Assembly (NCBI GenBank): GCA_032718475.1
Contig: JAUCBJ010000889.1
Coordinates: 1-51,296, forward strand
DNA from: Nemertoderma westbladi
Lineage: Eukaryota; Animalia; Xenacoelomorpha
Direction: 5' to 3'
Length of the DNA stretch: 51,296 nt
In this document: in pieces, positions 3,666 to 44,184 of the stretch
Position numbering within the stretch: the stretch's first letter is position 1
How the letters are laid out: every line of letters begins with the position of its first letter
Made by a program: the position numbers and the translations under genes
The notes under the pieces: generated by a model
What the model was told of the DNA's origin: nothing
Database searches by the model: none
The model's input: the letters and a program-made list of their open reading frames with translations, nothing else

Positions 3666-3779
3666 TATCCATATTAATATAGTAATAGTAATAATATCCT
3701 ATAGTGTGTCATTAACATAGAGTTATAGTTATTTTTATAGTTATAGAGCGAGTTAAACATTTTGGCTGCTGATATTAGG
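3666..3779 (+). repeat. 114-bp direct repeat, copy 1 (copy 2 at 5733-5846)
   Basis: tatccatattaatatag...gctgatattagg occurs twice; one mismatch seen (ttaaac vs ttatac). Confidence 0.9.
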
Positions 3780-4193
3780 CTGCTGACCATAATAGTATTA
3801 ATTACCATTAATACGTATTTACTGCATCTCATTTTAAATTTATACGCATATATTTAATCTCATTTTTACGACATCAGAGACCGACCCTTTTATTAATACG
3901 TATATATATATTTCATCTTATTTTAATACAAATATTTCTATCTAATTTCATATAACATCCAGTCTTCTGACCCTTTTAACTTCTTCGTTTAATCTCATAA
4001 TTAGCACGGCCTTTTTGAGACCAATTACATACAGTAATAATTTTAACTCGATGTATTTTAATGTACCTTAAATAATTATTAACTCATATTTTAAACTAAG
4101 TAATGTATGAATGTGTATTAACTCATATTTTAAACTATGTAATGTATCTCTTATGGGGGAAACCCCATCACCATATAATACTATAGTTAAATT

Positions 4194-21600: not shown

Positions 21601-24421
21601 GTCTCCCACACCCTCCACAGATCCTCCTGTACTTCCCACTCCGTCTCCCACACCCTCCACAGATCATCCTATACTTCCCACTCCGTCTCCCACACCCTCC
21701 ACAGATCCTCTTGTACTTCCCACTCCGTCTCCCACACCGTCCACCGTTCCTCCTGTACCTCCCACACCGTCTCCCACACCTTCCACAGATCCTCCCGTAC
21801 TTCCCACTCCGTCTCCCACACCGTCCACAGATCCTCTTGTACGTTCCACTCCGCCTCCCACACCCTCCACAGATCCTCCTGTACTTCCCACTCCGTCTCC
21901 CACACCCTCCACAGATCCTCCTGTTCTTCCAACTCCGTCTCTCACACCCTCCACCGATCCTCCTGTACTTCCCACTCCGTCTCCCACACCGTCCACCGAT
22001 CCTCCTGTACTTCCCACTCCGTCTCCCACACCGTCCACCGATCCTCCTGTTCTTCCCACTCCGTCTCTCACACCCTCCACAGATCCTCCTGTACTTCCCA
22101 CTCCGTCTCCCACACCGTCCACAGATCCTCCTGTACTTCCCACTCCATCTCCCACACCCTCCACAGATCCCCTCATACCTCCCACTCCGTCTCCCACACC
22201 CTCCACAGATCCTCTCGTACTTCCAACACAGTCTCCCACACCTTCCCCAGATCATCCTGTACTTCCCACTCCGTCTCACAAACCCTCCACGGATCACCAC
22301 ATACATCCCACTCCGTCTCCTACACCCTCCAAAGATCGCCCCTTACTTCCCACTTCGCCTCCCAAACCCTCCACAGATCCTCCTGTACTTCCCACTCCGT
22401 CTCCCACACCCTCCACAGATCCTCCTGTACTTCCCACTCCGTCTCCCACACCGTCCATAGATCCTCCTGTACTTCCCACTCCGTCTCCCACACCCTCCAC
22501 AGATCCCCCCATACCTCCCACACCGTCTCCCACACCCTCCACAGATTCTCCCGTACTTCCTATTCCGTCTCCCACACCGCCCACAGATCCTCCTGTACTT
22601 TCCACTCCGCCTCCCACACCCTCCACAGATCCTCCTGTACTTCCCACTCCGCCTCCCACACCGTCCACAGATCCTCCTGTACTTCCCACTCCATCTCCCA
22701 CACCCTCCACAAATCCCCTCATACCTCCCACTCCGTCTCCCACACCCTCCACAGATCCTCTCGTACTTCCAACACAGTCTCCCACACCTTACCCAGATCA
22801 TCCTGTACTTCCCACTCCGTCTCCCAAACCCTCCACGGATCACCACATACATCCCACTCCGTCTCCTACACCCTCCAAAGATCGCCCCATACTTCCCACT
22901 TCGCCTCCCAAACCCTCCACAGATCCTCCTGTACTTCCCACTCCGTCTCCCACACCCTCTACAGATCCTCCTGTACTTCCCACTCCGTCTCCCACACCCT
23001 CCACAGATCCTCCTGTACTTCCCACTCCGTCTCCCACACCCTCCACAGATCCTCCTGTACTTTCCACTCCGTCTCCCACACCGTCCACGGATCCTCCTGT
23101 ACTTCCCACTCCGACTCCCACACCCTCCACAGATCCTCCTGTACTTCCCACTCCGTCTCCCACACCCTCCACAGATCCTCCCGTACTTCCAACACTGTCT
23201 CTCACACCCTCCACAGATCCTCCTGTACTTCCCACTCCGTCTCCTACACCCTCCTGTACTTCCAACACCGTCTCTCACACCCTCCACAGATCCCCCATGC
23301 TTCCCACTCCGCCTCCCACACCCTCCACAGATCCTCCTGTACGTCCCACTCCGTTTCCACACCGTCCACAGATCCTGCTGTACTTCTCACTCCGTCTCCC
23401 ACACCCGCCACAGATCCCCCCATACATCCCACTCCGTCTCCCACACCCGCCACTGATCCCCCAATACCTCCCACTCCGTCTCCCACACCCTCCTCAGATC
23501 TCCCATACTTCCCACTCCGCCTACCACACCCTCCACAGATCCTCCTGTACTTCCCACTCCGTCTCCCACACCGTCCACAGATCCTCCTGTACTTCCCACT
23601 CCGTCTCCTACACCCTCTACAGATCCCCCCATACCTCCCACTCCGTCTCCTTCACCATCCACAGATCCCCCCATCCCCCCACTCCGCCTCCCACACCCTC
23701 AAACATCCTCCTGTACTTCCCACTCCGTCTCCCACACCATCCACAGATCATCCTGTACTTTCCACTCCGACTCCAACACCCTCCACAGATCATCCTGTAC
23801 TTCCCACTCCGTCTCCCACACCCTCCACAAATCCTCCTGTACTTTCCACTCCGTCTCCCACGCCGTCCACAGATCCTCCTGTTCTTCCAAAACCGTCTCT
23901 CGCACCCTCCACAGATCCTCCTGTACTTCCCACTCCGTCTCCCACACCTTCCACAGATCCTCCTGTACTTCCCACTCCGTCTCTCACACCATCCACAGAT
24001 CCTCCTGTACTTCCCAGTCCGTCTCCCACACCCTCCACAGATCCCCCTGTACTTCCCACTTTGCCTCCCACACCCTCCACAGATCCTCCTGTACTTCCCA
24101 ATCCGTCTCCCACACACTCCACAGATCCCCCCATACTTCCCACTCCGTCTCCCACACCCTCCACACCGCAGATCACCCCATACCTCCCATTCGTCTCCTC
24201 CACCCTCCACAGATCCCCGCATACGTCCCACTCCGTCTCCTACACCCTCCACAGATCCCCCATACCTCCCACTCCGTCTCCTACACCCTCTACAGATCCC
24301 CCCTTACCTCCCACTCCGTCTCCTTCACCATCCACAGATCCCCCCCATCCCCCCACTCCGCCTCCCACACCCTCCAAACATCCTCTTGTACTTCCCACTC
24401 CGTCTCCCACACCATCCACAG
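9611..24421 (+). repeat. 42-bp tandem array, left part; consensus CCACAGATCCTCCTGTACTTCCCACTCCGTCTCCCACACCCT ([14 protein letters not shown]); possible mucin/extensin-like exon
   Basis: ~350 units by length/42. Two sub-variants (cctcctgtactt / cccccc atacct). Kilobase higher-order repeats. Many +/-1 indels in C runs. A 3808-codon stop-free frame spans 11034-22460. Confidence 0.95.
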
Positions 24422-26683
24422 TGTAAGGGTCCAGTAGTATACCGCTTACCAGATCCTAGTAACGATGTATCTTACTATGAGACTCTAGTAATGTATACGG
24501 GCTCGTACAGTATCTGACAACAAATCCCAGTCCAGGATATCTAAACAAACAGATACAGTACACAAACGACTACTGGCGAGGAACAGAGCCTTGTATCTAT
24601 TCTATGTACGTGAGCGGGTCTAATGCCTACGTACTAGACAGAAGGATACCTGTCCTCTAACCGGTGAGGCAGATGTACAGTTACAGTAACAGACCAAACT
24701 CACGGGAAAACAATCCCCGCGCAGCGAATCCTAACTATCACTGACAGTCCTAAATACAGTAACTTGCCGCGGTGTGATTTATATGGTTTATATACGAGCT
24801 AGTGGGTTAACAGACCTAGCGTAACAACACTGACAGTCCTAAATCAGTCGAAAAGGGGTCGTGCCTAAATGTAACAATAACTGATCCCCCTGTACGAAAT
24901 CAGTCTAAAGGGTCAGGCCTAAATGTAACAATACCGTTGTCCAGACAAACAACAGTTTAATAACGAAAGTGAAATACTCCTTATCGCCGCAACTAAATCA
25001 GATCCTAATTTTACAAATACAGACAATTTCCACCTAAAGTAATGTATAGTACGCTATAGCTAGTAGAACTTTAAGGGCGATATGTTTTAGGGCGTGTGTG
25101 TGTGGGTGTGTTACAAATAAAACAATTTCGTGTAATTCCTTTTACTAGGTTTTAGTGATTTTCTGACTAAGTGATACCGTGCGCTAGCTACTAAAATAAA
25201 CTAGTCGCGTTTGTAGAACTTTATACTCACGAATGACGTCAAAGCTCTCTCCTTCCTATCCACAACCCAATGGGCAACCACAGTGTTAGTAACTACACCC
25301 GTGATCGGCACTAATACCAGATTCTGGTTGTAAGATAAGAATAGGGGTTAATCGCTACCGTACGTTAGCTGATCTGGTATACTAATTTAATTCTAGAACT
25401 TTGTTGCTGCGGTAGTTAGCAGCAATACCTATCAGTACGTGGCAAGGCGCGGTAGGATATTAATAAACCTCCCTAGGCCAAGCAGTGTGCCGGTAGCAGA
25501 AATACTCCTTGCCTGATCAAATAGCTAACTCCAGACAGGGGGGGGGGGGGGGGGGGGTACTAATGTACGTTCTACAAAGCGAACCGGTACCAAACAGTCA
25601 GTGCTACGAATCACTAAATTATGGAACATATGCTGTCCGTACCTAATATGTACTCGCGTACTGACGAATGGCAATAGTTCGCACCTGTAGGAAGTACAGG
25701 GATTCGTAGGACTGACAAAGGGGGGGTTGTCTGGATATAATTATTTGATCCTAAATTTGCGGCGTCCAGTACGGTGTCACGCTTACCCTGATCTATAGGT
25801 CTTACGGCGGGCAAGGGCGTCGAACAAAGTCTTACCTTTCTCACAAAGCGGGCGCTGCATAGCAAGTTGAGCATTTCGAAGGGGCAAAGGGGGTGCGCGG
25901 TCAATCCAATGTGGGCGCTAGCGTGTTGTGGACATCCCTTCCCTGCGTTGCTTACGGCCTAACAATCTAGGCTGCCATCTCCCTGGTGTTCGGCTGTCCC
26001 GAAGTCGGACCAAAAGAAAACATGTCAGGAAATTGCAGTATATTTACAGTTTTACAAAAGGATTTATCAAATAAAGTTTCAACAAGAAACCGAATTAACT
26101 AATTTTACAAGAATAAACTATAATAATATCAGGTATTAACGTGATAAGGTGGAGTGATAACCGAAGGCAAAACGGCCTTTTTATACTAGAAATTGCACAT
26201 GGAAACTAAACAGAATTTTCCACAGCTTCACCATTGAGCAATGAAGTGCTTCGTGCTCTATGATTGGCCCAGCTCATCGTTCAACGCAGTCCGGCCCTTA
26301 CACTAATCTGGGACATGGAATCCTAACAGAATTTTCCACTGCCGCACATTTGAGCAATAAGATAATTTATGCCCTATGATTGGCCTGGCTCATCATTCGC
26401 TACGCTGTACGCTTCTCATTGGCCTACCAATTAGCACCACACGAAAATAAATGGCCCCAAAATACAAATTTCCCGACTGGGATTCGAACTCGTAACCTAC
26501 GTAATGTAACCAACGCCTTAACCATCTGACCACTACGCCACGAGAGTACCTAAGGGTTTTATGTGTACAAATATGAATAGGCATATTACATTACTGTAAC
26601 TTAATCAAAATACGTCGGATTTTCAAAGTTTTTACGTTAAAGTTAAACTACTAAATGCTATCTTATAGTGAAATAATTCATCA
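24422..26683 (-). repeat. 3' LTR (2262 bp)
   Basis: + strand TGTAAGGG...TTCATCA; direct repeat of 38272-40540. Confidence 0.97.
26470..26540 (-). promoter_or_regulatory. tRNA-derived (SINE-head-like) A/B-box module in U3 of the 3' LTR
   Basis: - strand GTGGTCAGATGGTTAAGGCG (A box/D arm) ... GAGTTCGAATCCC (B box). Anticodon and acceptor stems are not intact. Confidence 0.6.
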
Positions 26684-27138
26684 CCGCTCCATGAAAACAG
26701 TAAGTAAGACTGTTTTCACCAATCGAAATATAAAATATTTACAAACTATTTCTAAATTTACTGGTAGGGCCTAAAATATAAAATATAATCACTATCTAAT
26801 TATTGCATACTTAATATTGCAGATACGGCGTAAATACAATCGATCGTACATACAAATACAAATTTACGAATTAACTTCAGTGCCTAAAATACAAAAAAAG
26901 GCTTTCGGTTATCAAGGTAAGCAAATTAAACAAATCAGAACAAATAAATCAAACAAATCGAACAAATAAATCAAACTCTTTCGATAAATCTTTATATATT
27001 GTAAATATACATAATAAACCTTCACCAAATTAAATCAGTTCAAATATAATATAAACATAATGCGCTAATAACTTTCAATAGTGTCCTCCTGACGATCTAA
27101 TAGTTCGTCCTGCTGGTCTGGATATCTTCTCCTGAGCA

Positions 27139-27537
27139 CTAATTGCTAACGGTAGGCTCGCAAGCCTTCCTTTCCATATCTCGTCCTTCCAAACCCAACG
27201 TCCGATATAAATACCCAAATATAATATCCAAATATAAAATATCCAATATAAATATCCAATATAACATCCAAATATAATATCTGAATATAATATCCTTTCT
27301 TCTCGCTTTCCTATTCCTTGGCCGACCGGGCTCGTCCACGTCCTCTAATACGATTGGGTGGTGGTCGAGGTCGAACTGGGCTCGGACTTCGGCGTCGAGT
27401 TGTCGGTGGTTCCAAAACGCTAGGAAAGGGGACGACGGGAGATGAAACGACCGCCTTCTTGGTAACGCAGACTTTGGTGGTTTGGGCAACGCGCTAATAT
27501 CAGCTCGGGGTTCTCGCAAACGTCGCTGGCGTCGCAT
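27139..27537 (-). CDS. Putative accessory ORF B, Arg-rich (132 aa; C-terminus runs into AT-rich short repeats)
   Basis: MRRQRRLREPR, PRRRSF and GRPRNRKARRK clusters; lies in a GC-richer island within an AT-rich 3' region. No homology recognised. Confidence 0.35.
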   Translation of the reverse strand: MRRQRRLREPRADISALPKPPKSALPRRRSFHLPSSPFLAFWNHRQLDAEVRAQFDLDHHPIVLEDVDEPGRPRNRKARRKDIIFRYYIWMLYWIFILDILYLDIIFGYLYRTLGLEGRDMERKACEPTVSN

Positions 27538-27671
27538 AACGCATCGTAGGGGTACAACGCTTTGAACTCCGCGCGTAACTCCTCCGCTGTTTTGTTATAA
27601 GCGTCCAATCGCTGTCGCGTGACGTTTGGATCCGCCTTGGATTTAGCAAGCTTGGCTGTACTCCTAGCCAT
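27420..27671 (-). CDS. Putative accessory ORF A (83 aa, MARSTAKLAK...; C-x5-C-x9-C-x2-H)
   Basis: ATG at 27671 in strong context (AGTATGG), ~100 nt downstream of a branchpoint/polypyrimidine/AG acceptor (27795-27767). No homology recognised. Confidence 0.4.
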   Translation of the reverse strand: MARSTAKLAKSKADPNVTRQRLDAYNKTAEELRAEFKALYPYDALCDASDVCENPELILARCPNHQSLRYQEGGRFISRRPLS

Positions 27672-28466
27672 ACTCTCCACTCCAAACAGGTTAAAGTTTT
27701 GGCCCCATATCGGTTGAACGGCGCCTGGTGCTCCTATTCCTGCGTGGATCTTTGATAATAGTGTTTCTACTAGAGGAAGCACAAACAGAGGTTAGATGTG
27801 AGGTGACTTAGAGTTTGTCGGCTTTTGGCTCAACTCTGCTCTAAACCCCAACCCATTTTGCCTAATGACTTCGGGTTCGCGTGATTTCGCACTGGCTCCT
27901 AATCCAAAAAATTGTGCCGATAAAAAACGAATTCCGGGTAAACTAGCCGCGAGTCTAAAATACTCACCTTTTAATTTCCCATACTACGTTTCCCAAGAAA
28001 ATAAGTCAGTCGAGAATTAATTGGTCAAAATAATAGTAGACACGACTACGCAGAATAAGACCGATTTTCTTTTCAAAAAAAAAAAATTTATTTATCGGTA
28101 GGCTCGCAAGCCTTCCATCCGCTCTTGTCCTCCCCAATTTTAATTTTATCTAGCTGTATTCTAGAATTTGCTTTCACTGGAGAATCGTTTTTCTTAAATT
28201 TAAATCCAACTAAATGGATTTGTCTAATAATTTTGAAAATTGTCTCACTTGTGGGTTCCAAGTGGAATTCCATTCCTACTGTACACACAATCCCGCTCCT
28301 ATGTGATACATAAGGGTACTACCCTCCATGTTCACGTATAAAGACAATGGAATTCCACCGCTGTCTCTATCTACAGTGAAGAGGATTACAAATGCACGTA
28401 CAGTAATACAAATACAAATAACTAAAATACAGTAGGTCTATGTGGCGGCCAACAAAGGTCCCACAT

Positions 28467-30494
28467 CTATTTACTAATATTGGGTGGAGATTTGTAGTCT
28501 CCCGTCTCGTTTCTAGTCTCCTCAAGGAGTACGAGACGTTGTACAGGTCTATCTACGGTACGTCCGTCGATAGTCCGTACAGTAACTGTTCTCACTATAC
28601 CAGATGTAGGGTGCGTGGTCAAAATGACTCCAGTCAGCCAAAACCGTCTTCTCAGATTAGCTTCGGCCAATAAAACATGGTCACCACGCCTTAAACACCG
28701 GGTATTTAGATACCAGGAAGTTCTGGTTGAAATAGAGGGCAAATAATATTTCTGCCATATTTCCCAGAATTTATTTGCAAGCAATTGAGTGATTTTCCAA
28801 GCCTTGTTGCCGTATCCGTCACTATCAACGGGTACCGAAATGGGCAACAATGTCGTCGGCGCCTGCATAAGCAGGTGCGCTGGTGTCAAGGCAAACTGTA
28901 CGTCGTTATTGTCTGGGATCAAAGCGATCGGTCTGGTATTTAAGATTGCTTCGATTTCTATTAGTAACGTCGTCAGTTGGTCGTCTGTCAAGATGTGTTG
29001 CGTCGGTACGACTTTAGCCATAGCAGTCTTTATTGAGCCAATCAGCCTTTCCCAAACGCCGCCTCTCCACGGACTGTCTGGAGTATTGAAAAACCAAACA
29101 ATACGGTGAGGACGTAGTTCCTCGGAAATCTGGTTTTGGTCCAATTTTCTCAAAGCTCTGGTTATCTCGTTCCGTGCACCCACAAAGTTTGTCCCTTGGT
29201 CGCAGTATATGGATTTGACCAATCCACGTCTAGCGATAAATCGCCGTAAGGCTAGGATAAAGGCATTGGTGGACAAGTCTGTCACTCGCTCTATATGGAC
29301 AGCTCTGCTGGCCATGCAGGTGAAGATCAATCCCCAACGTTTTACCTGTACCCTTCCGCGTTTCGCGATTATGGGTCCAAAACAGTCTATCCCTGTCTCA
29401 GTGAAAGGGGGTCTAAACGCCTGTAATCTTGCTAGTGGTAGTTCACTCATTTCTTGGTGTCCTATCCTCGCGTGCACCTTCTTACAAATAATACAGTTCC
29501 GTGTTACTGAACTCAGTGCCTTACTAGGTCTAATCAGTACAAACCTTGAGCGTAAGTGTGATAGACAGTGGTGTCTACCTACGTGTTTGAGTTGTACATG
29601 TGCGTCCAGTATCATAGCGCGCTGTAACTCATGGTGTTGCGGTATGATGATAGGATACCTAAAGTCAAGTGCAAAGTCGATGTTTTGGAGTCTGGACTTG
29701 TGACAAAGTAAGCCCCGGTAAATAATCGGACTCCAACTCAAAATCGGTGAAGACTTAATCTGTTTACCTTGTTTGATCGCTGTGAACTCTCGTGCGAAAT
29801 ATCGCAATTGATAATGTCGAATGATATCAACTTCACAGTGGCCAATTTCCTTTAAGGTAAGTCTTCTAGGAAAGTCGCGTTTGCCTCTGGCATATTGTCT
29901 CAATCGTTTGAGCCATGCTAACTTGCGGCATGCGTCAGTCCATGATCTAGTTAGGTTCACTATCCTGTCTACGTAAGTGTTAGTGACGTCATCGGGTAAG
30001 GTGTAGTCGTAGTGTGGATACTTGTCTGGACTTGGTAGGCCCACGGGCCTTCCGGTAGGTTTGTCTGAGTCCCCAAGTACGTCAATCTCTACTGTCTTAC
30101 CTTCGCCGTCCGCACCTAATGTGTCGACTGGCAGTAATGGTTTCAACTCTACAGTGTCAGTGTGTTCCTGTGAGCCTGTAAGCTTCCTAACCTTAGTCAC
30201 CACTTTACCTGTAGGTAAGTCAAGTACCTTCTTCGAGCGGAGTGTAATCCCTGTGGCCACCACTCTGTCGTCCAAAGAAGTCAAATTTGGTACGTCTCTA
30301 AATGTCCGCTCCAATGGGTCTTCTAATGGAGTGTCTAGTAGACAGTCTGGTGAAGCGTCTGGTGAACAGTCTGGTGAGACGTCTGGTGAGACATAGCGCG
30401 GAACATCCGGCAAAATGTCCTGTCGTCGGTCCCAAAGTCTGTCTAGCGTAACTTCTGTCAGAAAGTCTGGTTCAAAGTCTGGTGGACAGTCGGT
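28467..30494 (-). CDS. pol: Pol C-terminal part: linker + integrase (HHCC, DDE, BEL C-terminal domain)
   Basis: H-VQLK-H...CIIC, TGIDCFGP, YCDQGTNF, GGVWERL, LNTRPI, GDHVLL..W..G.I..G.VR.V.VRT..RPVQRL. In frame with the upstream ORF across one TAG (30495-30497). Confidence 0.93.
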   Translation of the reverse strand, partial: TDCPPDFEPDFLTEVTLDRLWDRRQDILPDVPRYVSPDVSPDCSPDASPDCLLDTPLEDPLERTFRDVPNLTSLDDRVVATGITLRSKKVLDLPTGKVVTKVRKLTGSQEHTDTVELKPLLPVDTLGADGEGKTVEIDVLGDSDKPTGRPVGLPSPDKYPHYDYTLPDDVTNTYVDRIVNLTRSWTDACRKLAWLKRLRQYARGKRDFPRRLTLKEIGHCEVDIIRHYQLRYFAREFTAIKQGKQIKSSPILSWSPIIYRGLLCHKSRLQNIDFALDFRYPIIIPQHHELQRAMILDAHVQLKHVGRHHCLSHLRSRFVLIRPSKALSSVTRNCIICKKVHARIGHQEMSELPLARLQAFRPPFTETGIDCFGPIIAKRGRVQVKRWGLIFTCMASRAVHIERVTDLSTNAFILALRRFIARRGLVKSIYCDQGTNFVGARNEITRALRKLDQNQISEELRPHRIVWFFNTPDSPWRGGVWERLIGSIKTAMAKVVPTQHILTDDQLTTLLIEIEAILNTRPIALIPDNNDVQFALTPAHLLMQAPTTLLPISVPVDSDGYGNKAWKITQLLANKFWEIWQKYYLPSISTRTSWYLNTRCLRRGDHVLLAEANLRRRFWLTGVILTTHPTSGIVRTVTVRTIDGRTVDRPVQRLVLLEETRNETGDYKSPPNISK

Positions 30495-30745
30495 CTAGAT
30501 GTCTGGTGAACAGTCTGGTGAGACGTCCGGTAGACATTCTGTCGAGAGTTCCATCAAACAATCTGGCGAACAATCCGGAGAACAATCTGGTGTCTCTTCT
30601 GGTGAATAGTCTGGCGAGTAATCTGGTGAACAATCCGGCGAAACGTCTGGTGAAATCTCCCGCGGAACATCCGGCGAAGGATTCATACAAGCGTCTGGTC
30701 GAGTGTCTGGCGAGACGTCTGGCGTAATGTCAGGTCTGGCGTCCA
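30330..30745 (-). repeat. Degenerate 12-bp tandem repeat encoding (S/T)PD-x within the RNase H-integrase linker
   Basis: SPDVSPDCSPDYSPDYSPEETPDCSPDCSPD...; + strand tctggtga/tctggcga recurs with 12-nt period. Confidence 0.85.
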
Positions 30746-32159
30746 GGTCATCAGATTTCGTCCGTCCTTTTTTCCTTTTGACCTTGGCGTTGGCTTTCGC
30801 TTTAGACTTGACAACCTTGTCGAGTTTTATCTCGGCACCCTCTGGTATGGTGTTGGTTGTCGCGTCCAATAACGGTGGCCATTCGTCTGATGGTCGCTGT
30901 AGGAAATCGGGTCCTCTAAACCAAAAGGATTTATTGTCCGGTTTACAAAAGTCGAGTGGTTGCATCCCCCGTGACGCGATGTCAGCTGGGTTCAGCTTCC
31001 CTGGACAGTGACGCCAATCTTGTTTGAGCGACCGGTCTAGTATTTCAGCCCGTCTGTTGGCTACGAAAGTCTTGAACTCAAATGTTTCGTTGTTTATGTA
31101 CCAAAGTACCAACGTCGCATCCGTCCAATATGTGACCTTCAAGTTAGCCTCCAGCTCGCGTTGAACTAGACTGACAATATCGGTGGATATCGTCCCGGCT
31201 TGCAGCTCCCCACGAGGTACAGTCATATACTTCAATGGCATTGTTCTAGCCCTTGAAGTAACGAGAGATACATCGTAGCTGTCCGATGTCACTTGTCGTC
31301 TAAGGTATAAAGTAACCCCCAATCCATCCTTGCTAGCGTCACTAAAGCTGTGAAGCTCTAAATCAGCAGGAAAGGTGGTTTGCAAAGGAAAGTATACCCT
31401 TGGTATGGTATAGTCTTGTAGGAACGTCAGTTGGGCTTCCCAGTCCCTCCATCGCTCAGCTAACTTTTCTGGGATGGGATCGTCCCATTCCAGTCCGGCT
31501 TGCCAAATGCTGCGGAGTATGATCCTGGCATGTAGGATCACTGGACTAATGAAACACAACGGGTCATACAATCGACTCATGGTCGATAAGCAAGTCCTCT
31601 TAGTGAGAGGTCTAGTCTGGTCGTTGGACCTTACACGTACCCTAAAATTGTCGGTGTTAGGGTCCCAACTAAGTCCTAGTACTTTGGTCGTCGGCAGAGG
31701 TTCTAGGTCTAAGTCCAAGTCACCTCCACTGCGATCCATCGGGTCAAATGAGTTCACCAGTTCGGGTTCGTTGGAAGCGAACTTCGTCAGGTGAAATCCG
31801 CCCTCAGCGAGACAATCCTGGAGTTGGTGTGCTACGGTTGTAGCGCGCTCCAAGGTGTCACAACTCTTGAGGCCGTCATCCACGTAGAAGTCTCGTTCCA
31901 CGGTCCGAACTACTTCTGGGTCAAATTGGTCTCGTCTGTCCAATGCTGTCTGCTTCAATGCGTACATGGTGCAGTTGGGGCTGTCCCTGGCTCCGAATAC
32001 TCTTACCTGCATTTGGTAAGTTTCTGGCGGAAGTTGTAAGTTTCCGTCCGGATACCAAAGAAACCTCAAACTGTCCCTGTCCCGCTCCAAAGCCTTAACC
32101 TGGTGAAACATGGCCTCTACGTCACAGGTGAAAGCCACTTTGCGTTGTCTAAAACGCAT
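30495..32159 (-). CDS. pol: Pol middle part: reverse transcriptase + RNase H + SPD-repeat linker
   Basis: RFRQ..VAFTCDVEAMFHQV, VFGARDSP, FYVDD, LGLSWD, LYDPL, LHSFSDAS, PRGEL, YWTDA, NPADIASRG. Confidence 0.95.
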   Translation of the reverse strand: MRFRQRKVAFTCDVEAMFHQVKALERDRDSLRFLWYPDGNLQLPPETYQMQVRVFGARDSPNCTMYALKQTALDRRDQFDPEVVRTVERDFYVDDGLKSCDTLERATTVAHQLQDCLAEGGFHLTKFASNEPELVNSFDPMDRSGGDLDLDLEPLPTTKVLGLSWDPNTDNFRVRVRSNDQTRPLTKRTCLSTMSRLYDPLCFISPVILHARIILRSIWQAGLEWDDPIPEKLAERWRDWEAQLTFLQDYTIPRVYFPLQTTFPADLELHSFSDASKDGLGVTLYLRRQVTSDSYDVSLVTSRARTMPLKYMTVPRGELQAGTISTDIVSLVQRELEANLKVTYWTDATLVLWYINNETFEFKTFVANRRAEILDRSLKQDWRHCPGKLNPADIASRGMQPLDFCKPDNKSFWFRGPDFLQRPSDEWPPLLDATTNTIPEGAEIKLDKVVKSKAKANAKVKRKKGRTKSDDLDARPDITPDVSPDTRPDACMNPSPDVPREISPDVSPDCSPDYSPDYSPEETPDCSPDCSPDCLMELSTECLPDVSPDCSPDI

Positions 32160-35100
32160 TAGACTCCCATGAGGTAATTATTCATATTCGGCCCGTCCAT
32201 CAGTTCGCTGTTCATAGACATCCCTTGGTAAAGTGCAGCGCAGTCGTTGACTACACGCACCTTGCCAGGTTTGTCCGGGTGTCGAACAAAATGATGTGGC
32301 AGGTAATATGTCTGGTCTGTGGTTACCTCAGGATTTAACATCCTAATGGCGTATCCCTTTTGGAGATACATCTGAAGTTGTGCATTGTATTGCATATGGG
32401 CCGTCTCGTCTCGCAACAATCGCTGCCTTATTGATTTGAGTCGCCTCAAAGCAAGCGGGTAATTGTTAACGAGCTTAGGTTGTCCATCGCGCCACAACAT
32501 ACCAACCTCATAGTGGCCATTCGCGGTCTGGCGAATGGTATCTCTCATAATATTTAATGACCGTTTTTCCTGTTCTGACATAGCGGTCTCGTAACTACCG
32601 GGTTCTGCTGAGTCCTGTTCCAACCATTGAATGGTCCGTTCAGTCAGCAGTCGGTCAAGCGCTGCTTGCACTGCGCCATGGTCCTCGTCCACGTCTTCGT
32701 CCGCTGCGGTGGCTAGTGTCAATGTGTCTGGTAGGCTTGCAAGCCTTCCGGTGTCACTAGTCGGCGTCGAATCGTCGTGCGGCGGTTTGACAACCTCTTG
32801 ATCTATCGGTAGGCTCGCAAGCCTTCCAAGATCAACGACCGGTGTCGAAGCCTGGTGGGTGGGGTCAATGACCTTCGGATTTTTCGGTAGGCTCGCAAGC
32901 CTTCCAAAATCCTCGTTCATCGAGTCATCCACAGCAACAACCCTCAGGTCTTCAGTAGTCAATACAACCTGGTCTACTGCAAGTAGTTGTAAGTCAGAGG
33001 TCCGTATGGTCGTGTCCAGATCGGTTACGTCAGTATCGGTGGCGTCTGCGTTAGTGACGCAAGTCTGTCGTAGTGCCGTCCGTACAATTGGACCACGGGA
33101 GTGTGAAGGAGAATTATCTATCGTGTTAGTCAATAAACTACACGTACTCAAAACGTCGTCCTCCTGGTCACTTACCTCTAGTGAACGTATTGGTGCTCTA
33201 GTATACCAACCTATGGGAGTTCTACATGCGTAGGGGTTGCCCGCTGTAATAACAGATGGGCGTGTCTCCCATACCTGATGTAAGTTAAACTGGTCTGTCC
33301 CAATTAACATCGCAATGGAACGATAATTGACAGGACATTCCGGTATTCCAAGGTGTCGGAAATACTTACGATCTTCCGGTGATTGCTCTGGCACAGGGCC
33401 GAGCAAGTTACTAAAGTCCTTCGTAGCTGCAAAGGTCAAATTTCTTACCGGAAGTAATGAGCGCTCCTCCTTGCTGTGTTCCGCTTTGGAAAGAAGAGTG
33501 TCTAAAGTTAGTTTTACTCTCGTCACAGGAATCGCTCTCTTACCATGCATGCTGCTTACAGTATACTGAGCAGTCTTACCTTGACTCAAGTCCGTAACTA
33601 CGTCGGCTACTTGTTCGTCGACATAGCTATGCGATGACGCAGAGTCTAAGATGGCGTATATACGCTTGCTCCCTCGGGTTCCGGTAATCTTTATAGGAAT
33701 CACGCTAAACCCTTTCAATTGGTTCTGTGTGAGGAGCGTTATCGATGGCTGTTCCTCACCTGCATGCACGTAGAAAGTGTCGTCTTCCTCCTCGTCCTCG
33801 TCCGATGATCCTGACTGATCCATACAGTCGGTATAAAAGGTACGGATCTCGCGCGGCGCACGCTCCTTATAAAGCGCGTCGCATCTAGCCGCTTTATCGG
33901 GATGCTCTCGTCGAAAGCGTCTGGTCGGAGTATGACTGGTTGTGTGAAGCAACGCGTCATGGTTACGTCCACACAGAGAACATGTATCATCGCTCGGGCA
34001 ATCCTTCCGGACGTGTCCTGGCTTCATACATCTCCAACAGGAATCTAGAGATCGGATTTGGAGTCTCCTTTCCTCGATCCCTAACTCTTTAAAAGCGCGA
34101 CATCCACGTAGTTTATGTCCGCTATGGTTTCTGCCGTTCCGCTCGCAGTATGAGCATCCCACAAAGTCCGCCGGCAACTGTTGTCGTGGCTGCGTGGTGC
34201 CGATAGGCGTCAGAACTTTAGAAGTCTCAGTAGGGGTGGCGTAAGTAACGGCTTTCGCGTTCGTCGGAAATGGTTTAGTCCGATTTGGCGCAGAAACAGT
34301 TATCCCTTCCGCCGCGATATGGTGATCGGTATAGTTCGATCGAGTCTCGATCACGGCCTCCCGTGAAATAAGTTGATAGACATCGGTGAGTTTTAATAAC
34401 CCTCCGGCCTCTTCGCGCTGGTACTCGATGCGTCGCCATTCTCTTCGTAGTCGATGATGAAGTCGACCGATTATTCGAATGAGAACCGTCGGTGCGTTAG
34501 CGTACTCGAGTTGTCCAATGGACCGTAAAGTCCCTATAGCGTTCTTTATTTCGTCCGCGAGTCGTAAAAGGTCGATCGGTCTCGAAATGTTGCCTCCTCT
34601 GCAGAGGTCTTCTATAATGGATTTAGCCATGGCGACATTACCTCCGTAAATCGAATATAAACGGTCGTACGCCAACTCAAAGGCATCGGGAACACCAATA
34701 AAGGTTTCCGCTAATCGTTTCGGCTCACCAGACAGGACTTGGAGCAAGTAGTTAAACTTCTCCGTCGAGGTGAAAGCACACTTAGCGATCTGGGACTCTA
34801 CGTAGTCTACCAGTGTGCGCCAGTGTTTCGCGTTGCCAGAGAACTTCGGCGGTTGCTGTGCCGGTAATCCGTGTCTAGCCGCGAATTTCGCAATCTCGCT
34901 AACCAAATCCAACTGTCCGCGTCCCTGTTCGGCGGCGTCGTCCAGTCGCTCCCTTCCGCGCGTTGTTCGTCGGTAGGAATTATTAACGGGATCTTCTTCT
35001 CGATGTGTCGGAGTCCGTCTAGTCTCCTGTTCTCTCCTCGGTGGTCGATGTTGTCTAGTTTGTTCCAACTCCACGCTGGTTCGTGATCGATCCGACGGTT

Positions 35101-37042
35101 GCGCTTCGAGTCGCTCTTCTATCTGAGCTAGTCGGTCCGCTACAGGTCGCATTATTTCGGCGAGTCTGTTGGTGCTGATCGCTTCCGCTGGTTGCAACGT
35201 GGGTTTCTGTTGGGGTGTTTCTCGAGGTGGATTGTCGATGTAGGGATTCGTCGATCTCTCCTCTCGTTTGTAATCCGCTGCCGCTGCCGCTCCAATACGG
35301 AATATTTCCCGTTCCGTCGACTCCGAGTCACTGGATGAATCGCTGTCGTCCGGATAAGGTGGTTGGCGGGTTCGCGTCCGGCGTATTATTCTTGGTCGAG
35401 TTCGTCGTGGTCTGGGATCTACGGCTCCTCGTTGTTCGGTAGGCTCGCAAGCCTTCCACGAAGTTGTAGGTCTCGTTAAACATTGGGTGAGAGGTCTAGT
35501 AAAAACATCGGAGTTAAGCTCTACTGTAGGTTTATAAATGACTGGGTTCGCGCAGCACGTCACAGGTTTAACTTGTAATGGTTTACTTACCTGTTTTACC
35601 GTCATAAACGCAGGTTCGTCTCTCTCTACAAGTAAACTACGGCTTACAGTTGGTGGACTACTTATCTTACCTGCGAGAATCGGCGATGAAGTCGCCCTAG
35701 GTTGCGGTATTTCCGTCACAACAAACCTGCTACCTTGCGTCGGGCGCACAGGCGTTATTTCCTTAGGTTTCGTAACAAAGACCGGTTTTGTCGGAGTCGT
35801 GGGTTTGAGCATAGGAATAACTTGGGGAAAACGTTTACAGTAATCCTCGACGAACTCCTCTCCTCGATCTATCGCTCCCACACTTCCTTCCTCGATTCGC
35901 TTCTGAATTCTGCGATATCGAGTCTCCATGCGATCCAGGGCAGACAAGTCGTGTCCAGCTCGAGACCTTATAGATCTATCTCTCGCGTCGAGTTCGAGGT
36001 CCTCTTGCGCGTTGGCCGCCTCGCGCGATCTGCGATTTAATTCGAACTGGAGCTGCATCTCTCTTTCGCGTCGATCTGCATCCTGTTGTTGTGCCGCTAA
36101 CTCCGCTTCCTGTATAGCTAATCGAGCGTTTATTTGTCGCGCCTCCAACTTGGCCCGAGCGTCGGATGCTGCCTTTTTCCGTGCTAACTCGTCAGCTGCC
36201 GCCTGTCGTGCTAACTCGTCAGCTGCCGCCTGTCGTGCTAACACGTCAGCTGCCGCCTGTCGTGCTAACTCGTCGGCTGCCGCTTCTCGCGCTAAGTCCT
36301 CCTCCAGTCTCCGCATCTCTGATGCTTCGAACTCAGCCTGCGCTTGAAGTTTCGCAAGTTTCGCTACGTCTTCTCTACGCTGTCTTTCTCCTTCCATCGC
36401 AATCTGCGCCAATTGTCGTTGAGTTTCTTCCTCAGCGACTTGTTGTCGGCGTGCGACCTCCTGTTGTTGTCGAATAATTCCAGACGCTGTTCTACTAACG
36501 TCGCCAACGTCGCCAACGTCGCTCCGTACGCTAACGAACGATCTATCCAGTGGTGGAATTTGGTAGGCTCGCGAGCCTTCCGTAGATAGAACTTCCGTCA
36601 TCCCTCTCGGTACAACTTCCGGTTCTTCGATCGGTACTCCGCATCTACGAAGAAAATTGGTGAGCGTCTCCAACCTCCCGTCCAGGCAGTAGAGTTCTTC
36701 TTCCTCTTCGGGTTGTAACAAGGCGTCCGAAACTGACTCACCTAGCAGTTGGTCGAACTGCTCCTGTTGAGCCAATCTTATCACCGACTTAAACTGGATA
36801 AGGCTTTCTCTCGCACTTACCAACTTGTCTATTATCTTTACCTGAGTAAAGTTATCGCCACGCAACTCTGCAAGTTCGTGTAAACCTTTAAGTTTATCTA
36901 CGGAGGCATGTACCCTACTTTCTATCCTTACCTGTAAGGTGTAGAACTCATATCTCGACATCGGGGCGGTTAACTCGCGTAAAACGCGAAAACCTTCTCC
37001 GAGGTTCCGAGTAATCTGTACTATACATATATATATATACAT
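32159..37042 (-). CDS. gag-pol: Gag - aspartic protease - RT N-terminus; start codon uncertain; frameshifted relative to the rest of pol
   Basis: Coiled-coil N-terminus with ~4 ELARQAAAD repeats, PPKFSGN capsid motif, BEL triple knuckle (CSYC..H..C, CWRC..H..C, CSLC..H..H), protease AILDSAS...MLIGTD, RT start YYLPHHFV..KPGKVRVV.DC..MNSELMDGP. Confidence 0.93.
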   Translation of the reverse strand: MYIYICIVQITRNLGEGFRVLRELTAPMSRYEFYTLQVRIESRVHASVDKLKGLHELAELRGDNFTQVKIIDKLVSARESLIQFKSVIRLAQQEQFDQLLGESVSDALLQPEEEEELYCLDGRLETLTNFLRRCGVPIEEPEVVPRGMTEVLSTEGSRAYQIPPLDRSFVSVRSDVGDVGDVSRTASGIIRQQQEVARRQQVAEEETQRQLAQIAMEGERQRREDVAKLAKLQAQAEFEASEMRRLEEDLAREAAADELARQAAADVLARQAAADELARQAAADELARKKAASDARAKLEARQINARLAIQEAELAAQQQDADRREREMQLQFELNRRSREAANAQEDLELDARDRSIRSRAGHDLSALDRMETRYRRIQKRIEEGSVGAIDRGEEFVEDYCKRFPQVIPMLKPTTPTKPVFVTKPKEITPVRPTQGSRFVVTEIPQPRATSSPILAGKISSPPTVSRSLLVERDEPAFMTVKQVSKPLQVKPVTCCANPVIYKPTVELNSDVFTRPLTQCLTRPTTSWKACEPTEQRGAVDPRPRRTRPRIIRRTRTRQPPYPDDSDSSSDSESTEREIFRIGAAAAADYKREERSTNPYIDNPPRETPQQKPTLQPAEAISTNRLAEIMRPVADRLAQIEERLEAQPSDRSRTSVELEQTRQHRPPRREQETRRTPTHREEDPVNNSYRRTTRGRERLDDAAEQGRGQLDLVSEIAKFAARHGLPAQQPPKFSGNAKHWRTLVDYVESQIAKCAFTSTEKFNYLLQVLSGEPKRLAETFIGVPDAFELAYDRLYSIYGGNVAMAKSIIEDLCRGGNISRPIDLLRLADEIKNAIGTLRSIGQLEYANAPTVLIRIIGRLHHRLRREWRRIEYQREEAGGLLKLTDVYQLISREAVIETRSNYTDHHIAAEGITVSAPNRTKPFPTNAKAVTYATPTETSKVLTPIGTTQPRQQLPADFVGCSYCERNGRNHSGHKLRGCRAFKELGIEERRLQIRSLDSCWRCMKPGHVRKDCPSDDTCSLCGRNHDALLHTTSHTPTRRFRREHPDKAARCDALYKERAPREIRTFYTDCMDQSGSSDEDEEEDDTFYVHAGEEQPSITLLTQNQLKGFSVIPIKITGTRGSKRIYAILDSASSHSYVDEQVADVVTDLSQGKTAQYTVSSMHGKRAIPVTRVKLTLDTLLSKAEHSKEERSLLPVRNLTFAATKDFSNLLGPVPEQSPEDRKYFRHLGIPECPVNYRSIAMLIGTDQFNLHQVWETRPSVITAGNPYACRTPIGWYTRAPIRSLEVSDQEDDVLSTCSLLTNTIDNSPSHSRGPIVRTALRQTCVTNADATDTDVTDLDTTIRTSDLQLLAVDQVVLTTEDLRVVAVDDSMNEDFGRLASLPKNPKVIDPTHQASTPVVDLGRLASLPIDQEVVKPPHDDSTPTSDTGRLASLPDTLTLATAADEDVDEDHGAVQAALDRLLTERTIQWLEQDSAEPGSYETAMSEQEKRSLNIMRDTIRQTANGHYEVGMLWRDGQPKLVNNYPLALRRLKSIRQRLLRDETAHMQYNAQLQMYLQKGYAIRMLNPEVTTDQTYYLPHHFVRHPDKPGKVRVVNDCAALYQGMSMNSELMDGPNMNNYLMGV

Positions 37043-37043
37043 A

Positions 37044-37343
37044 CTATATATATATGTACTGTACTGTATCTATACTCCTAATAACGTTCTCCTGGCTCCC
37101 AGTCGAACTTACCATGTCCGGTTCCCGCGATCTAGTCTGCGGGACGGTAAGGAAATCTTCGATTCTGCCGTCGCCACGCGTTGCGGTTTCCGGTATTTCC
37201 GTTCGGGGTACCGGCGACGCAAGCGGTGTGACATCGGTGGAATCTCGGGTTCTCCTTCTCGGTTCGTCTACTGTCGATCTGTCCGGGTCGCACGAGTCAT
37301 AGTCGGTAGGTGGGTATCTCGTCGAATGGGGTGTGTCACTCAT
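37044..37343 (-). CDS. 99-aa ORF upstream of gag; possibly the true Gag N-terminus cut off by a TA-rich insertion
   Basis: Ends ..DTVQ-YIYI*, while gag resumes IVQITRN. GTACAG is repeated on both sides of the (TA)n patch, and deleting 43 nt fuses the frames. Confidence 0.4.
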   Translation of the reverse strand: MSDTPHSTRYPPTDYDSCDPDRSTVDEPRRRTRDSTDVTPLASPVPRTEIPETATRGDGRIEDFLTVPQTRSREPDMVSSTGSQENVIRSIDTVQYIYI

Positions 37344-40008
37344 GTCTTATTATATACGTCAAGTACGGGTAATAAAATGTCAAATGTCTGAATGTTGAAG
37401 TGTCAAACTTACCTAACCGGTACAAATAAATCAACAAGTCAGAATGTCGAAATGTCAAAATGTCGAAATGTACAAATGTCAAACTTACCTTGATATATAT
37501 ATATATCATATATATACCCTAACCGGTACAAATAAACTAACAAAGTATATAATAAAATAAGTAGTAATCTAGCCTACCGGCTAAATTTGTACGAATAAAT
37601 GAGATAACGGTATACGTTAACAAAATGTAGATCAACAAGTATAAACAATAGGCCAAACAGCAACGTCTAACGGGAAAATAAGTACCAACAACACTACTAA
37701 TAGACAGTGAAACCCACAAATTTTGAGTACTACTGTGCTTTCTTAAGTTTGAACGACGCGAGTCGTAAAACTTACGTTCCTTTGATCTTCCAGTCGTACA
37801 AATTCCCAAATACAAACCGGACGTGGGTCTTTCCGTTTTTCGGCGGCGCGGACGAATTTATTGTCTCCCAAACTTTGCGAAAAGCGGTCTAATCCTCGAA
37901 GCGGTCCAGAAATGAGTCCTTGAGTCCTGAAAAGGTCGAAGGTGAGAGTTTTACTTCTACGCTTACGAAAAATCTTCCTAGGTACCGATACAAATTGGTC
38001 TTTAAACCCTATGTACCTTTTCAAGTACCGAAAGTAACACCGCACACACACGGCGTAAAACAAAGTGCTACAAACTAACTGTTAGCTAGTCAAATATTAA
38101 ATACGAAAGTACTAGCTACCCTAAAAGCCTACTGAAGCAGGGGACGTTCTAAATTACTAAATTTACTAACCTTAGTTTTAAATATCTCCTACTTTCAATA
38201 GCTAACAATCGAAATAATACTATACGCTACGGCGGAAATACTATATACTAATTTATATAAATACTTCCTACTGTAAGGGTCCAGTAGTATACCGCTTACC
38301 AGATCCTAGTAACGATGTATCTTACTATGAGACTCTAGTAATGTATACGGGCTCGTACAGTATCTGACAACAAATCCCAGTCCAGGATATCTAAACAAAC
38401 AGATACAGTACACAAACGACTACTGGCGAGGAACAGAGCCTTGTATCTATTCTATGTACGTGAGCGGGTCTAATGCCTACGTACTAGACAGAAGGATACC
38501 TGTCCTCTAACCGGTGAGGCAGATGTACAGTTACAGTAACAGACCAAACTCACGGGAAAACAATCCCCGCGCAGCGAATCCTAACTATCACTGACAGTCC
38601 TAAATACAGTAACTTGCCGCGGTGTGATTTATATGGTTTATATACGAGCTAGTGGGTTAACAGACCTAGCGTAACAACACTGACAGTCCTAAATCAGTCG
38701 AAAAGGGGTCGTGCCTAAATGTAACAATAACTGATCCCCCTGTACGAAATCAGTCTAAAGGGTCAGGCCTAAATGTAACAATACCGTTGTCCAGACAAAC
38801 AACAGTTTAATAACGAAAGTGAAATACTCCTTATCGCCGCAACTAAATCAGATCCTAATTTTACAAATACAGACAATTTCCACCTAAAGTAATGTATAGT
38901 ACGCTATAGCTAGTAGAACTTTAAGGGCGATATGTTTTAGGGCGTGTGTGTGTGGGTGTGTTACAAATAAAACAATTTCGTGTAATTCCTTTTACTAGGT
39001 TTTAGTGATTTTCTGACTAAGTGATACCGTGCGCTAGCTACTAAAATAAACTAGTCGCGTTTGTAGAACTTTATACTCACGAATGACGTCAAAGCTCTCT
39101 CCTTCCTATCCACAACCCAATGGGCAACCACAGTGTTAGTAACTACACCCGTGATCGGCACTAATACCAGATTCTGGTTGTAAGATAAGAATAGGGGTTA
39201 ATCGCTACCGTACGTTAGCTGATCTGGTATACTAATTTAATTCTAGAACTTTGTTGCTGCGGTAGTTAGCAGCAATACCTATCAGTACGTGGCAAGGCGC
39301 GGTAGGATATTAATAAACCTCCCTAGGCCAAGCAGTGTGCCGGTAGCAGAAATACTCCTTGCCTGATCAAATAGCTAACTCCAGACAGGGGGGGGGGGGG
39401 GGGGTACTAATGTACGTTCTACAAAGCGAACCGGTACCAAACAGTCAGTGCTACGAATCACTAAATTATGGAACATATGCTGTCCGTACCTAATATGTAC
39501 TCGCGTACTGACGAATGGCAATAGTTCGCACCTGTAGGAAGTACAGGTTAACCCAGGGATTCGTAGGACTGACAAAGGGGGGGTTGTCTGGATATAATTA
39601 TTTGATCCTAAATTTGCGGCGTCCAGTACGGTGTCACGCTTACCCTGATCTATAGGTCTTACGGCGGGCAAGGGCGTCGAACAAAGTCTTACCTTTCTCA
39701 CAAAGCGGGCGCTGCATAGCAAGTTGAGCATTTCGAAGGGGCAAAGGGGGTGCGCGGTCAATCCAATGTGGGCGCTAGCGTGTTGTGGACATCCCTTCCC
39801 TGCGTTGCTTACGGCCTAACGATCTAGGCTGCCATCTCCCTGGTGTTCGGCTGTCCCGAAGTCGGACCAAAAGAAAACATGTCAGGAAATTGCAGTATAT
39901 TTACAGTTTTACAAAAGGATTTATCAAATAAAGTTTCAACAAGAAACCGAATTAACTAATTTTACAAGAATAAACTATAATAATATCAGGTATTAACGTG
40001 ATAAGGTG

Positions 40009-40042
40009 GAGTGATAACCGAAGGCAAAACGGCCTTTTTATA
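40009..40042 (-). promoter_or_regulatory. Pol II core promoter of the 5' LTR: TATA box + initiator
   Basis: - strand TATAAAAA at 40042-40035 lies exactly 30 nt upstream of the A (40012) in TCACTC (Inr-like). Several CCAAT boxes lie upstream. Same arrangement at 26185/26155. Confidence 0.65.
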
Positions 40043-40326
40043 CTAGAAATTGCACATGGAAACTAAACAGAATTTTCCACAGCTTCACCATTGAGCAATG
40101 AAGTGCTTCGTGCTCTATGATTGGCCCAGCTCATCGTTCAACGCAGTCCGGCCCTTACACTAATCTGGGACATGGAATCCTAACAGAATTTTCCACTGCC
40201 TCACATTTGAGCAATAAGATAATTTATGCCCTATGATTGGCCTGGCTCATCATTCGCTACGCTGTACGCTTCTCATTGGCCTACCAATTAGCACCACACG
40301 AAAATAAATGGCCCCAAAGTACAAAT

Positions 40327-40397
40327 TTCCCGACTGGGATTCGAACTCGTAACCTACGTAATGTAACCAACGCCTTAACCATCTGACCACTACGCCA
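40327..40397 (-). promoter_or_regulatory. tRNA-derived A/B-box module in U3 of the 5' LTR
   Basis: Same sequence as 26470-26540. Confidence 0.6.
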
Positions 40398-40540
40398 CGA
40401 GAGTACCTAAGGGTTTTATGTGTACAAATATGAATAGGCATATTACATTACTGTAACTTAATCAAAATACGTCGGATTTTCAAAAGTTTTTACGTTAAAG
40501 TTAAACTACAAATGCTATCTTATAGTGAAATAATTCATCA

Positions 40541-43500: not shown

Positions 43501-43950
43501 CACCCTCCACACCGCAGATCACCCCATACCTCCCATTCGTCTCCTCCACCCTCCACAGATCCCCCCATACTTCCCACTCCGCCTCCTACACCCTCCACAG
43601 ATCCTCCTGTACTTCCCACTCCGTCTCCCACACCCTCCACACCACAAATCACCCTATACATCCCACTCCGTTTCCCACACCCTCCACAGATCCCCCCCAT
43701 ACTTTCCACTCCGCCTCCCACACCCTCCGCAGAACCGTCCTCCACAGATCCTCCTGTACTTCCCACTCCGTCTCCCACACCCTCCACACCACAAATCACC
43801 CTATACATACCACTCCGTCTCCTACACCCTCCACAGATCCCCCTCATACCTCCCACTCCGTCTCCCACACCCTCCACAGATCCCCCCATACTTCCCACTC
43901 CGCCTCCCACATCCTCCACAGATCCGCATGTACTTTCCACTCCGTCTCCA
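40541..43950 (+). repeat. 42-bp tandem array, right part (~80 units)
   Basis: Same unit. Removing the element and one CACAG restores a junction matching intact higher-order copies at ~23700-23780 and ~42750-42830. Confidence 0.95.
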
Positions 43951-44184
43951 TTCGCTTCTCCTCTCGCACGCCAAACTACTCCTCTCTCTCCTCCGATTGC
44001 AACCCTTGCACCTCTATCTTTTTGCCTCCCACCTCTAACTGCTCCCCTCACAACTATCACATTCTGCCCGCCCACTTCTAACACATTCTCTTGCACTTAT
44101 ACCGCTATCCCCTGCCTCTCCACCTCCACCGATATCTCTCACTTCTCCCTTCCTTACATCATCAGCATCCAGTATTCCATCTGA
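43951..44184 (+). other. Non-repetitive C/T-rich tail in frame with the Pro/Thr reading of the array, ending in TGA (possible C-terminus of a mucin-like protein)
   Basis: ..[36 protein letters not shown]; 77 codons without a stop. Confidence 0.35.

Follow-up and report, generated by a model that had tools for sequence, protein, structure and literature searches.

A Rev-like regulatory circuit has already been described in an LTR retrotransposon, where it is exemplified by CERV of the Ty3/Gypsy element Cer1 of C. elegans, a protein of 517 amino acids with H, G and M domains, among them a G-protein-like one, and proven function (PMC10309623). For the BEL/Pao elements, the ICTV profile names gag, pol and env as the only genes and refers to a replication that is poorly understood (PMC8742986), and in the accessible parts of two further accounts env alone is mentioned as a third gene (PMC3118150, PMC554778). 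In the literature covered, which comprised few subscription papers, we found neither a spliced accessory gene other than env nor a Rev-like circuit in this group. An older study is said to have described an extra ORF in the C. elegans element Cer7.

The locus described here is contained in a stretch of 51,296 nucleotides, which is referred to as the window. Its LTRs, the CCHC knuckle in Gag, the domain order PR-RT-RH-IN and the motifs YVDD and DAS are shared with Belpaoviridae as these are portrayed in PMC8742986, PMC554778 and PMC3118150, whereas its third gene is not env-like. With 16.1 kb and LTRs of 2.27 kb, the element exceeds the 4.2–10 kb and the LTR length of 0.2–1.2 kb given in the profile, ranges that are descriptive rather than defining (PMC8742986).

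A BEL/Pao element of unusual size

The element and its principal features, in coordinates of the window, are:

24422..40540, minus strand: BEL/Pao LTR retrotransposon of 16.1 kb, with a 5-bp target-site duplication
38272..40540, minus strand: 5' LTR of 2269 bp with TG...CA ends, defined by LTR–LTR identity
24422..26683, minus strand: 3' LTR of 2262 bp, defined by LTR–LTR identity
37407..37491, minus strand: donors 37488 and 37412 of the leader, which lie within a duplicated unit upstream of the initial gag ATG
37107..37343, minus strand: 5' part of gag (predicted), 77 codons from ATG 37343, ending at the in-frame phase-0 donor 37112
28467..37069, minus strand: gag-pol with DUF1759, CCHC knuckle, protease, reverse transcriptase (YVDD), RNase H (DAS) and integrase

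By its sequence, the element belongs to BEL/Pao (Belpaoviridae), an assignment that is based on the Pfam domains DUF1759, Peptidase_A17, Integrase_H2C2 and DUF5641 and on the order of motifs in pol, where the protease is followed by YVDD of the reverse transcriptase, DAS of RNase H and the integrase (PR-RT-RH-IN). The LTRs and gag-pol are flanked by a 5-bp target-site duplication (24417–24421 and 40541–40545). The two LTRs are 99.2% identical (three mismatches and four gaps) and the sequencing runs X1 and X3 contain thousands of contigs, which marks a family of high copy number with recent activity; its abundance and diversity are reflected in the 16405, 7199 and 308 contigs found on 26500–38500 in three DNA runs from three studies, one of which may stem from the same source as the window. 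The integrase has 843 relatives with the same domains, the nearest of which is 41% identical, and the named matches originate from marine invertebrates and fish. An animal is thus the likely host, and in the collection searched the element's lineage is without a close sequenced relative.

The element interrupts an array of about 370 repeats of 42 bp on the plus strand (9605–24421 and 40541–44184), which reads as a mucin-like open frame rich in Pro, Thr and Ser of up to 4147 codons, and fragments of LINE-type reverse transcriptases together with an intron-poor WD40-like stretch are located at 1434–5560 and 46031–46920. Each LTR harbours two 86-bp repeats with CCAAT boxes 5' of a TATA-like site (26197–26398 and 40054–40255), a block that is likely the promoter. 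BEL/Pao elements are characterised by an 18-nt primer-binding site for tRNA-Arg or tRNA-Gly; here, no primer site of the TGG type follows the 5' LTR, and a site of the tRNA type is not recognisable. The first ten internal bases (38271–38262) are exactly complementary to a 10-mer of the LTR (39543–39534, minus strand; probability by chance roughly 0.002). Self-priming, as it is known from Tf1-type elements, is possible by this complementarity; the match may also be a coincidence, and the same LTR 10-mer is at the same time the tract of a good acceptor.

In the window copy, gag-pol is broken at three places, namely in a TA-rich stretch at about 37018–37069, by a frame change near 32160–32177 and by a stop at 30497–30495. 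A gag intron spanning 37112–37015 was considered and dropped, its acceptor ranking 135 and one contig departing from the window copy at 37070; this departure implies that the TA-rich stretch is not common to all copies. The 5' part of gag is a candidate for a shared first coding exon. The unusual size of the element is explained in part by long insertions in Gag (with an open stretch of 1636 codons) and by 12-bp tandem repeats at 30310–30746, which encode a spacer rich in Pro and Asp that separates RNase H from integrase. Among the sense donors, the leader donors 37488 and 37412 rank 2 and 6. In the duplicated unit in which they reside (37382–37543), an acceptor-like tract is followed in one version by a TA-rich mini-exon of 30 nt with donor 37488 and in the other immediately by AG/GTAAGT (37412), the latter arrangement resembling, by its sequence, a recursive splice site of zero length; some copies skip 54 bases in this unit. 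Between the integrase stop (28469–28467) and the start of the 3' LTR (26683) lie 1783 bp, and no env-like ORF fits into this interval.

Coding constraint on ORF A

The following frames are located in the interval 3' of the integrase:

27420..27671, minus strand: ORF A, 83 residues from its Met, with a basic N-terminal half predicted to be helical and a C-x5-C-x9-C-x2-H tail
27421..27537, minus strand: 5' part of ORF B, starting with MRRQRRLR in a shifted frame that overlaps ORF A, doubtful as the start of a separate gene
27139..27419, minus strand: 3' part of ORF B, read in phase 1 behind acceptor 2 (see below) over 92 codons, with the basic patch RPRNRKARRK

A preceding sequence-only reading had pointed out both ORFs, an acceptor, the donors 27967, 37412 and 37488 and eight hairpins, all of which are present where it had placed them on the minus strand. 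ORF A stands out from chance by its synonymous bias between copies rather than by its splice motifs. The bias was determined on contigs of four DNA runs (from three samples) in the region 27370–27830, where 40 of 55 listed single-base differences were scored one at a time against an expectation in which the same types of changes are placed at random; the listed differences are the best supported ones, sites near contig ends are absent from them and many originate from a single split between subfamilies. In the core of ORF A that is free of overlap (27671–27538), 17 of the 25 listed differences are synonymous at an expected number of 7.6 (P about 5e-5), compared to 2/25 and 4/25 in the other two sense frames. 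From Met to stop the count is 18 of 29 (8.6 expected) with no new stop, and no indel is listed within ORF A, the sole listed one being located outside of the ORF. A similar bias is found in gag-pol, which served as control (17/28 synonymous, 9.4 expected); its sites were taken from 40 of 803 rows, of which 28 were used after exclusion of eight located outside of gag-pol, one in the 5' gag piece and three adjacent ones at 30201–30203. The synonymous excess demonstrates that the core of ORF A is kept as a protein, under purifying selection among the copies of the family at a strength like that of gag-pol, and we are highly confident that ORF A is a real coding exon.

Both ends of the ORF are less clearly delimited. 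In the Cys/His tail, one of the four listed sites is synonymous and none falls into a Cys or His codon. The contigs of other subfamilies depart from the window copy at 27513 and 27515, and the full Cys/His arrangement may therefore not be family-wide; from the spacing of these residues, zinc binding could be guessed. Towards its 5' end, the frame of ORF A in the window copy extends without a stop as far as acceptor 1 (phase 1, 115 codons). Upstream of about 27697, a different frame accommodates five of six differences as synonymous (P about 0.005), and one of the differences would introduce a stop in the frame of the window copy. One extra base 5' of the Met is found in three contigs (records 8, 15 and 24) and is absent in two (23 and 29), and when read in frame 3, the region 5' of the Met contains a stop at 27736–27734 in the window copy. 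The bias in the other frame and the extra base in three contigs suggest that in some copies coding runs 5' of the Met in another register, which would need an upstream exon.

By sequence, ORF A appears to be an orphan, with no similarity that would connect it to RNA-binding or export proteins. Among 1.84 billion protein representatives no credible homologue was detected, and the search extended to longer proteins, the Atlas and Pfam equally gave no match, with a best E-value of 1.7 in the PDB. Three matches of ORF A (E up to 0.001) were rejected as tandem-repeat proteins aligned in 5–8 short stretches. The structure predicted by AlphaFold2 from the single sequence is of low confidence (pLDDT 52, pTM 0.24), and no leucine-rich pattern resembling a nuclear export signal (NES) is found in ORF A. 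For residues 56–106 of ORF B, there is no relative among proteins of 83–265 residues.

Predicted splice sites and a repeated hairpin

The signals that would connect these frames to the leader, and the hairpin copies, are:

27767..27795, minus strand: acceptor 1, with branch CTAAC (27795–27791), pyrimidine tract and tandem TAGTAG (27772–27767)
27420..27446, minus strand: acceptor 2, a pyrimidine tract closed by a TAG that doubles as the stop of ORF A
27968..27983, minus strand: micro-exon candidate of 16 nt with donor 27967, entered in phase 0 and left in phase 1
27150..36581, minus strand: a 20-nt hairpin in eight copies, with starts at 36581, 35457, 32905, 32827, 32749, 30053, 28116 and 27170

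Acceptors were ranked among the 850 sense AG sites of the internal region with a crude score derived from consensus frequencies. The two AGs of acceptor 1, at 27767 and 27770, rank 2 and 5, and its TAGTAG is kept in one divergent contig of run X2 (read by eye). A higher-ranking acceptor, which had been overlooked, is found at 27421–27420. When the 1.78 kb were shuffled with dinucleotides preserved, the best site observed was equalled in 57 of 500 cases. The AG of this acceptor 2 ranks first of 850, and its neighbourhood coincides with a regional peak in contig depth (27402–27433) and a single listed difference in 27370–27481, which is synonymous in both candidate frames of the 3' part of ORF B. 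The second-best acceptor is likewise equalled in 57/500 shuffles, and a MAG/GTRAGT donor occurs in 10/500; the splice motifs on their own are therefore only moderately above chance.

The donor AAG/GTGAGT at 27967 ranks third on the sense strand. The micro-exon that it would terminate and the donors within gag had both escaped the first reading. The AG preceding the micro-exon (27985–27984) is weak (rank 108 of 850) and follows a 60-nt zone free of AG; in one divergent contig of run X5 this AG and the donor side are kept and the exon is two bases shorter (read by eye). In-frame gag donors are found in phase 0 at 37112, 36931, 35590 and 33175 and in phase 1 at 36741, 35670, 33759 and 33579. Behind either acceptor the longest frame is in phase 1, with 115 codons after acceptor 1 (ORF A) and 92 codons after acceptor 2 (3' part of ORF B). 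The same phase is that of several gag donors and that in which the micro-exon is left when entered from phase-0 gag donors; the micro-exon and the Gag donors are, as predicted, phase-compatible with both acceptors. The phase-2 frames encode a 25-codon Arg-rich peptide after acceptor 1 and, overlapping ORF B behind acceptor 2 (27418–27311, minus strand), a 35-codon peptide rich in Arg, Ser and Pro with RRRSPSP, which we take to be reminiscent of SR-type or hepadnaviral core tails.

The location of strong sense acceptors in front of the selected ORF A makes a subgenomic spliced accessory gene likely. Of the corresponding earlier proposal, the gene has thus gained support from selection and the splicing is still a prediction, with spliced expression of the ORF A region being probable. 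None of the 15 joints listed out of 115 in run X5 (33 shallow contigs, guessed to be RNA and possibly DNA) is located at a predicted splice site, a result that was given no weight in either direction. As the stop of ORF A forms the AG of the best acceptor, a link between ORF A and ORF B by splicing is likelier than the frameshift that had been suggested to join them in a single gene, and for the 3' part of ORF B an exon that begins at acceptor 2 would be the better explanation. The NES pattern matches this part three times unspecifically. With a score of at least 6.5, there are 15 donors on the sense strand compared to 3 on the antisense strand, and unspliced RNA therefore has splice sites to overcome.

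The eight hairpins are all in sense orientation and spread over 9.4 kb, with no further copy in the window and none in an LTR. They share a fold consisting of a 7-pair stem, an A-A mismatch and a 4-nt loop (z-scores of –0.7 to –3.7), and 15 of the 20 columns of the core are invariant, including the unpaired A residues. Pairing is retained in all 56 pairing cells, and a divergent copy keeps its seven pairs by means of one double change; the covariation concerns this one pair and is not significant (77/500 shuffles). The copies within coding sequence are read in three frames, and the position of the hairpin shifts between copies of the element (with joints near 27240–27310 and 27459), thus indicating that it is selected as nucleic acid. 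Rfam contains no match for the hairpin. No related locus was found in viral contigs, whether searched by integrase or by hairpin; five metagenome loci with one hairpin match each were dismissed as chance, as none of their proteins significantly matches Gag, either of the ORFs or two relatives of the integrase.

Seven of the eight hairpins are located 5' of acceptor 1 and thus within the predicted intron, and the eighth is part of the retained 3' exon. The joints 27237–28094 and 28124–27308, which are found at equal depth in run X4 and also in X1 or X3, indicate that in other copies the basic patch is immediately followed by a hairpin, which thus lies in the predicted retained exon; joint 27237–28094 does not reflect a loss of the accessory region, since together with its partner it describes a hairpin at another position. 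The assumption that hairpins mark unspliced RNA holds insofar as predicted splicing would remove seven of eight, and it is weakened by the hairpin in the retained exon of this and other copies. The repeat is therefore not confined to intron-containing RNA, as a response element of the Rev/Rex type would be, and its distribution suggests that the hairpins mark genomic RNA by number and not by presence.

Candidate roles and comparison with known systems

We tentatively favour a view where the ORF A protein, likely produced from spliced RNA, would regulate the export of unspliced RNA by analogy to Rev or CERV, and we regard a role in export or splicing control with the same reservation. Transcripts from the 5' LTR would be spliced from leader or gag donors, either directly or through the 16-nt micro-exon, with the use of acceptor 1 leading to ORF A, perhaps carrying a piece of Gag at its N-terminus, and that of acceptor 2 to a second, basic product. 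Default splicing would provide the accessory protein, which would move the balance towards unspliced RNA, and as a nuclear regulator it would let the splice-site-rich unspliced genomic RNA be exported and translated. Direct binding of the accessory protein to the 20-nt hairpin, as envisaged by this analogy, is doubtful. Comparably doubtful is the full picture of a giant BEL/Pao family with an independently evolved layout of complex retroviruses, where a micro-exon, two 3' acceptors and orphan proteins of Cys/His and basic character recognising the hairpin would together form a switch from splicing to export and packaging.

Among the alternatives, it is conceivable, if on balance rather unlikely, that ORF A is a spliced accessory gene unrelated to the hairpins, which would instead serve as packaging signals for Gag or as sites for host export or stability factors, and that the protein acts in counter-silencing, transcription or particle assembly. 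Dispersed sense hairpins of shifting position that are also found in the 3' exon suit multivalent sites for packaging or host factors, and small accessory ORFs of unrelated role are known from sORF1 and sORF2 of the MDG1 group (bioRxiv 10.1101/2025.03.14.642691). According to this source, these resemble the present case as two small accessory ORFs of an env-less animal LTR retrotransposon, with sORF1 being nuclear, but they are mostly located 5' of gag, belong to Metaviridae and comprise in sORF2 a membrane protein, whereas the hydrophobic part is not conserved here. Against this separation of protein and hairpin stand the location of seven of eight hairpins in the predicted intron and the many strong sense donors, which create a need for export.

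It appears improbable that ORF A is the remnant of a captured gene or of a gene in env position, whose bias records past selection in a region that is now silent. The register changes 5' of the Met, the divergence of the C-terminal part among subfamilies and the broken gag-pol of the window copy would fit such decay, but the bias is found among subfamilies of an abundant and recently active family, at a level similar to gag-pol and in a core without a listed stop or indel.

The sequence-only reading had proposed the Arg-rich frame as a candidate Tat/Rev-like partner of the hairpin, with MRRQRRLR starting a separate protein or a frameshifted continuation. We consider this unlikely in either form, and for a separate protein starting at this Met our judgement ranges from unlikely to doubtful. 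What remains in its favour is that none of the 11 third positions of ORF A in 27505–27539, exactly over MRRQRRLREPR, carries a listed change, compared to 18/44 just upstream, and that most such changes would destroy Arg codons; the corresponding P of 0.003 is naive, as the test was post hoc and covered 40 of the 55 rows, and sites near contig ends are unlisted. Six Arg codons of MRRQRRLREPR are themselves a shifted reading of the codons for C-D-A-S-D-V-C-E in ORF A, namely of Cys, Asp, Ser and Glu codons, and clusters with at least five Arg in eight residues occur five times in 5690 shifted-frame codons of gag-pol. No synonymous bias is apparent in the frame of ORF B, where one of four sites of the overlap is synonymous, one subfamily fails to align over 27516–27537, and on any RNA that uses acceptor 1 the Met would be preceded by upstream ATGs.

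The near-palindromic character of the repeat, the invariance of 15 of its 20 core columns including the unpaired A, and the basic, predicted helical ORF A would also be expected of a DNA site that is recognised by a Cys/His DNA-binding transactivator, comparable to Tas of foamy viruses or Tax of HTLV. A role of this kind is quite improbable, as there is no copy in the LTR, all eight copies share one orientation and the divergent copy keeps seven pairs by a double change. Finally, a small sORF2/FAST-type membrane protein, encoded by the 3' part of ORF B and spreading the element between cells, is suggested by a 19-residue stretch of mean hydropathy 2.0 beside the basic patch, and is very improbable and largely refuted by the loss of this segment in other copies, where the 13-bp AT-rich repeats that encode the hydrophobic tail are skipped or replaced (joints 27174–27297 and 27237–28094). 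The combination that marks sORF2/FAST-like fusogens, namely a conserved membrane segment with a polybasic patch behind it and an N-myristoylation motif, is not found, and the patch precedes the hydrophobic stretch, whereas it follows the membrane segment in sORF2.

Returning to the regulator of unspliced RNA that we tentatively favour, a selected orphan gene other than env, predicted to consist of several exons and accompanied by a repeated hairpin, provides a testable case of unspliced-RNA export. Its features differ from the viral paradigms in several respects. There is no homology to Rev or Tat. Compared to Rev and its response element RRE, eight dispersed 20-nt hairpins, one of which would stay in the spliced form, take the place of one large structured element. 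Compared to Tat and TAR, no hairpin is found at the 5' end of the transcript. A further difference to Rev concerns the lack of an NES-like pattern in ORF A and an Arg-rich motif that is only a candidate for selection. The likeness to Rev and Tat resides in small basic products that are predicted from multiply spliced RNA, with overlapping frames behind shared acceptors, in a micro-exon and in RNA hairpins that are mostly located in the predicted intron (for Rev see PMC10309623). The comparison with CERV is one by description, as the present system is known from sequence: its products would comprise 83 to about 200 residues and are found in a BEL/Pao host with two candidate acceptors and a repeated 20-nt hairpin. 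If functional in the proposed way, it would work like CERV or Rev, without membership in either family being claimed, and its minimal, defined hairpin would make it much more amenable to experiment than CERV, for which the RNA target is left untested in the paper. Should the protein bind the hairpin, Rev-like control would have arisen independently once more, in a third family of reverse-transcribing elements after retroviruses and Cer1.
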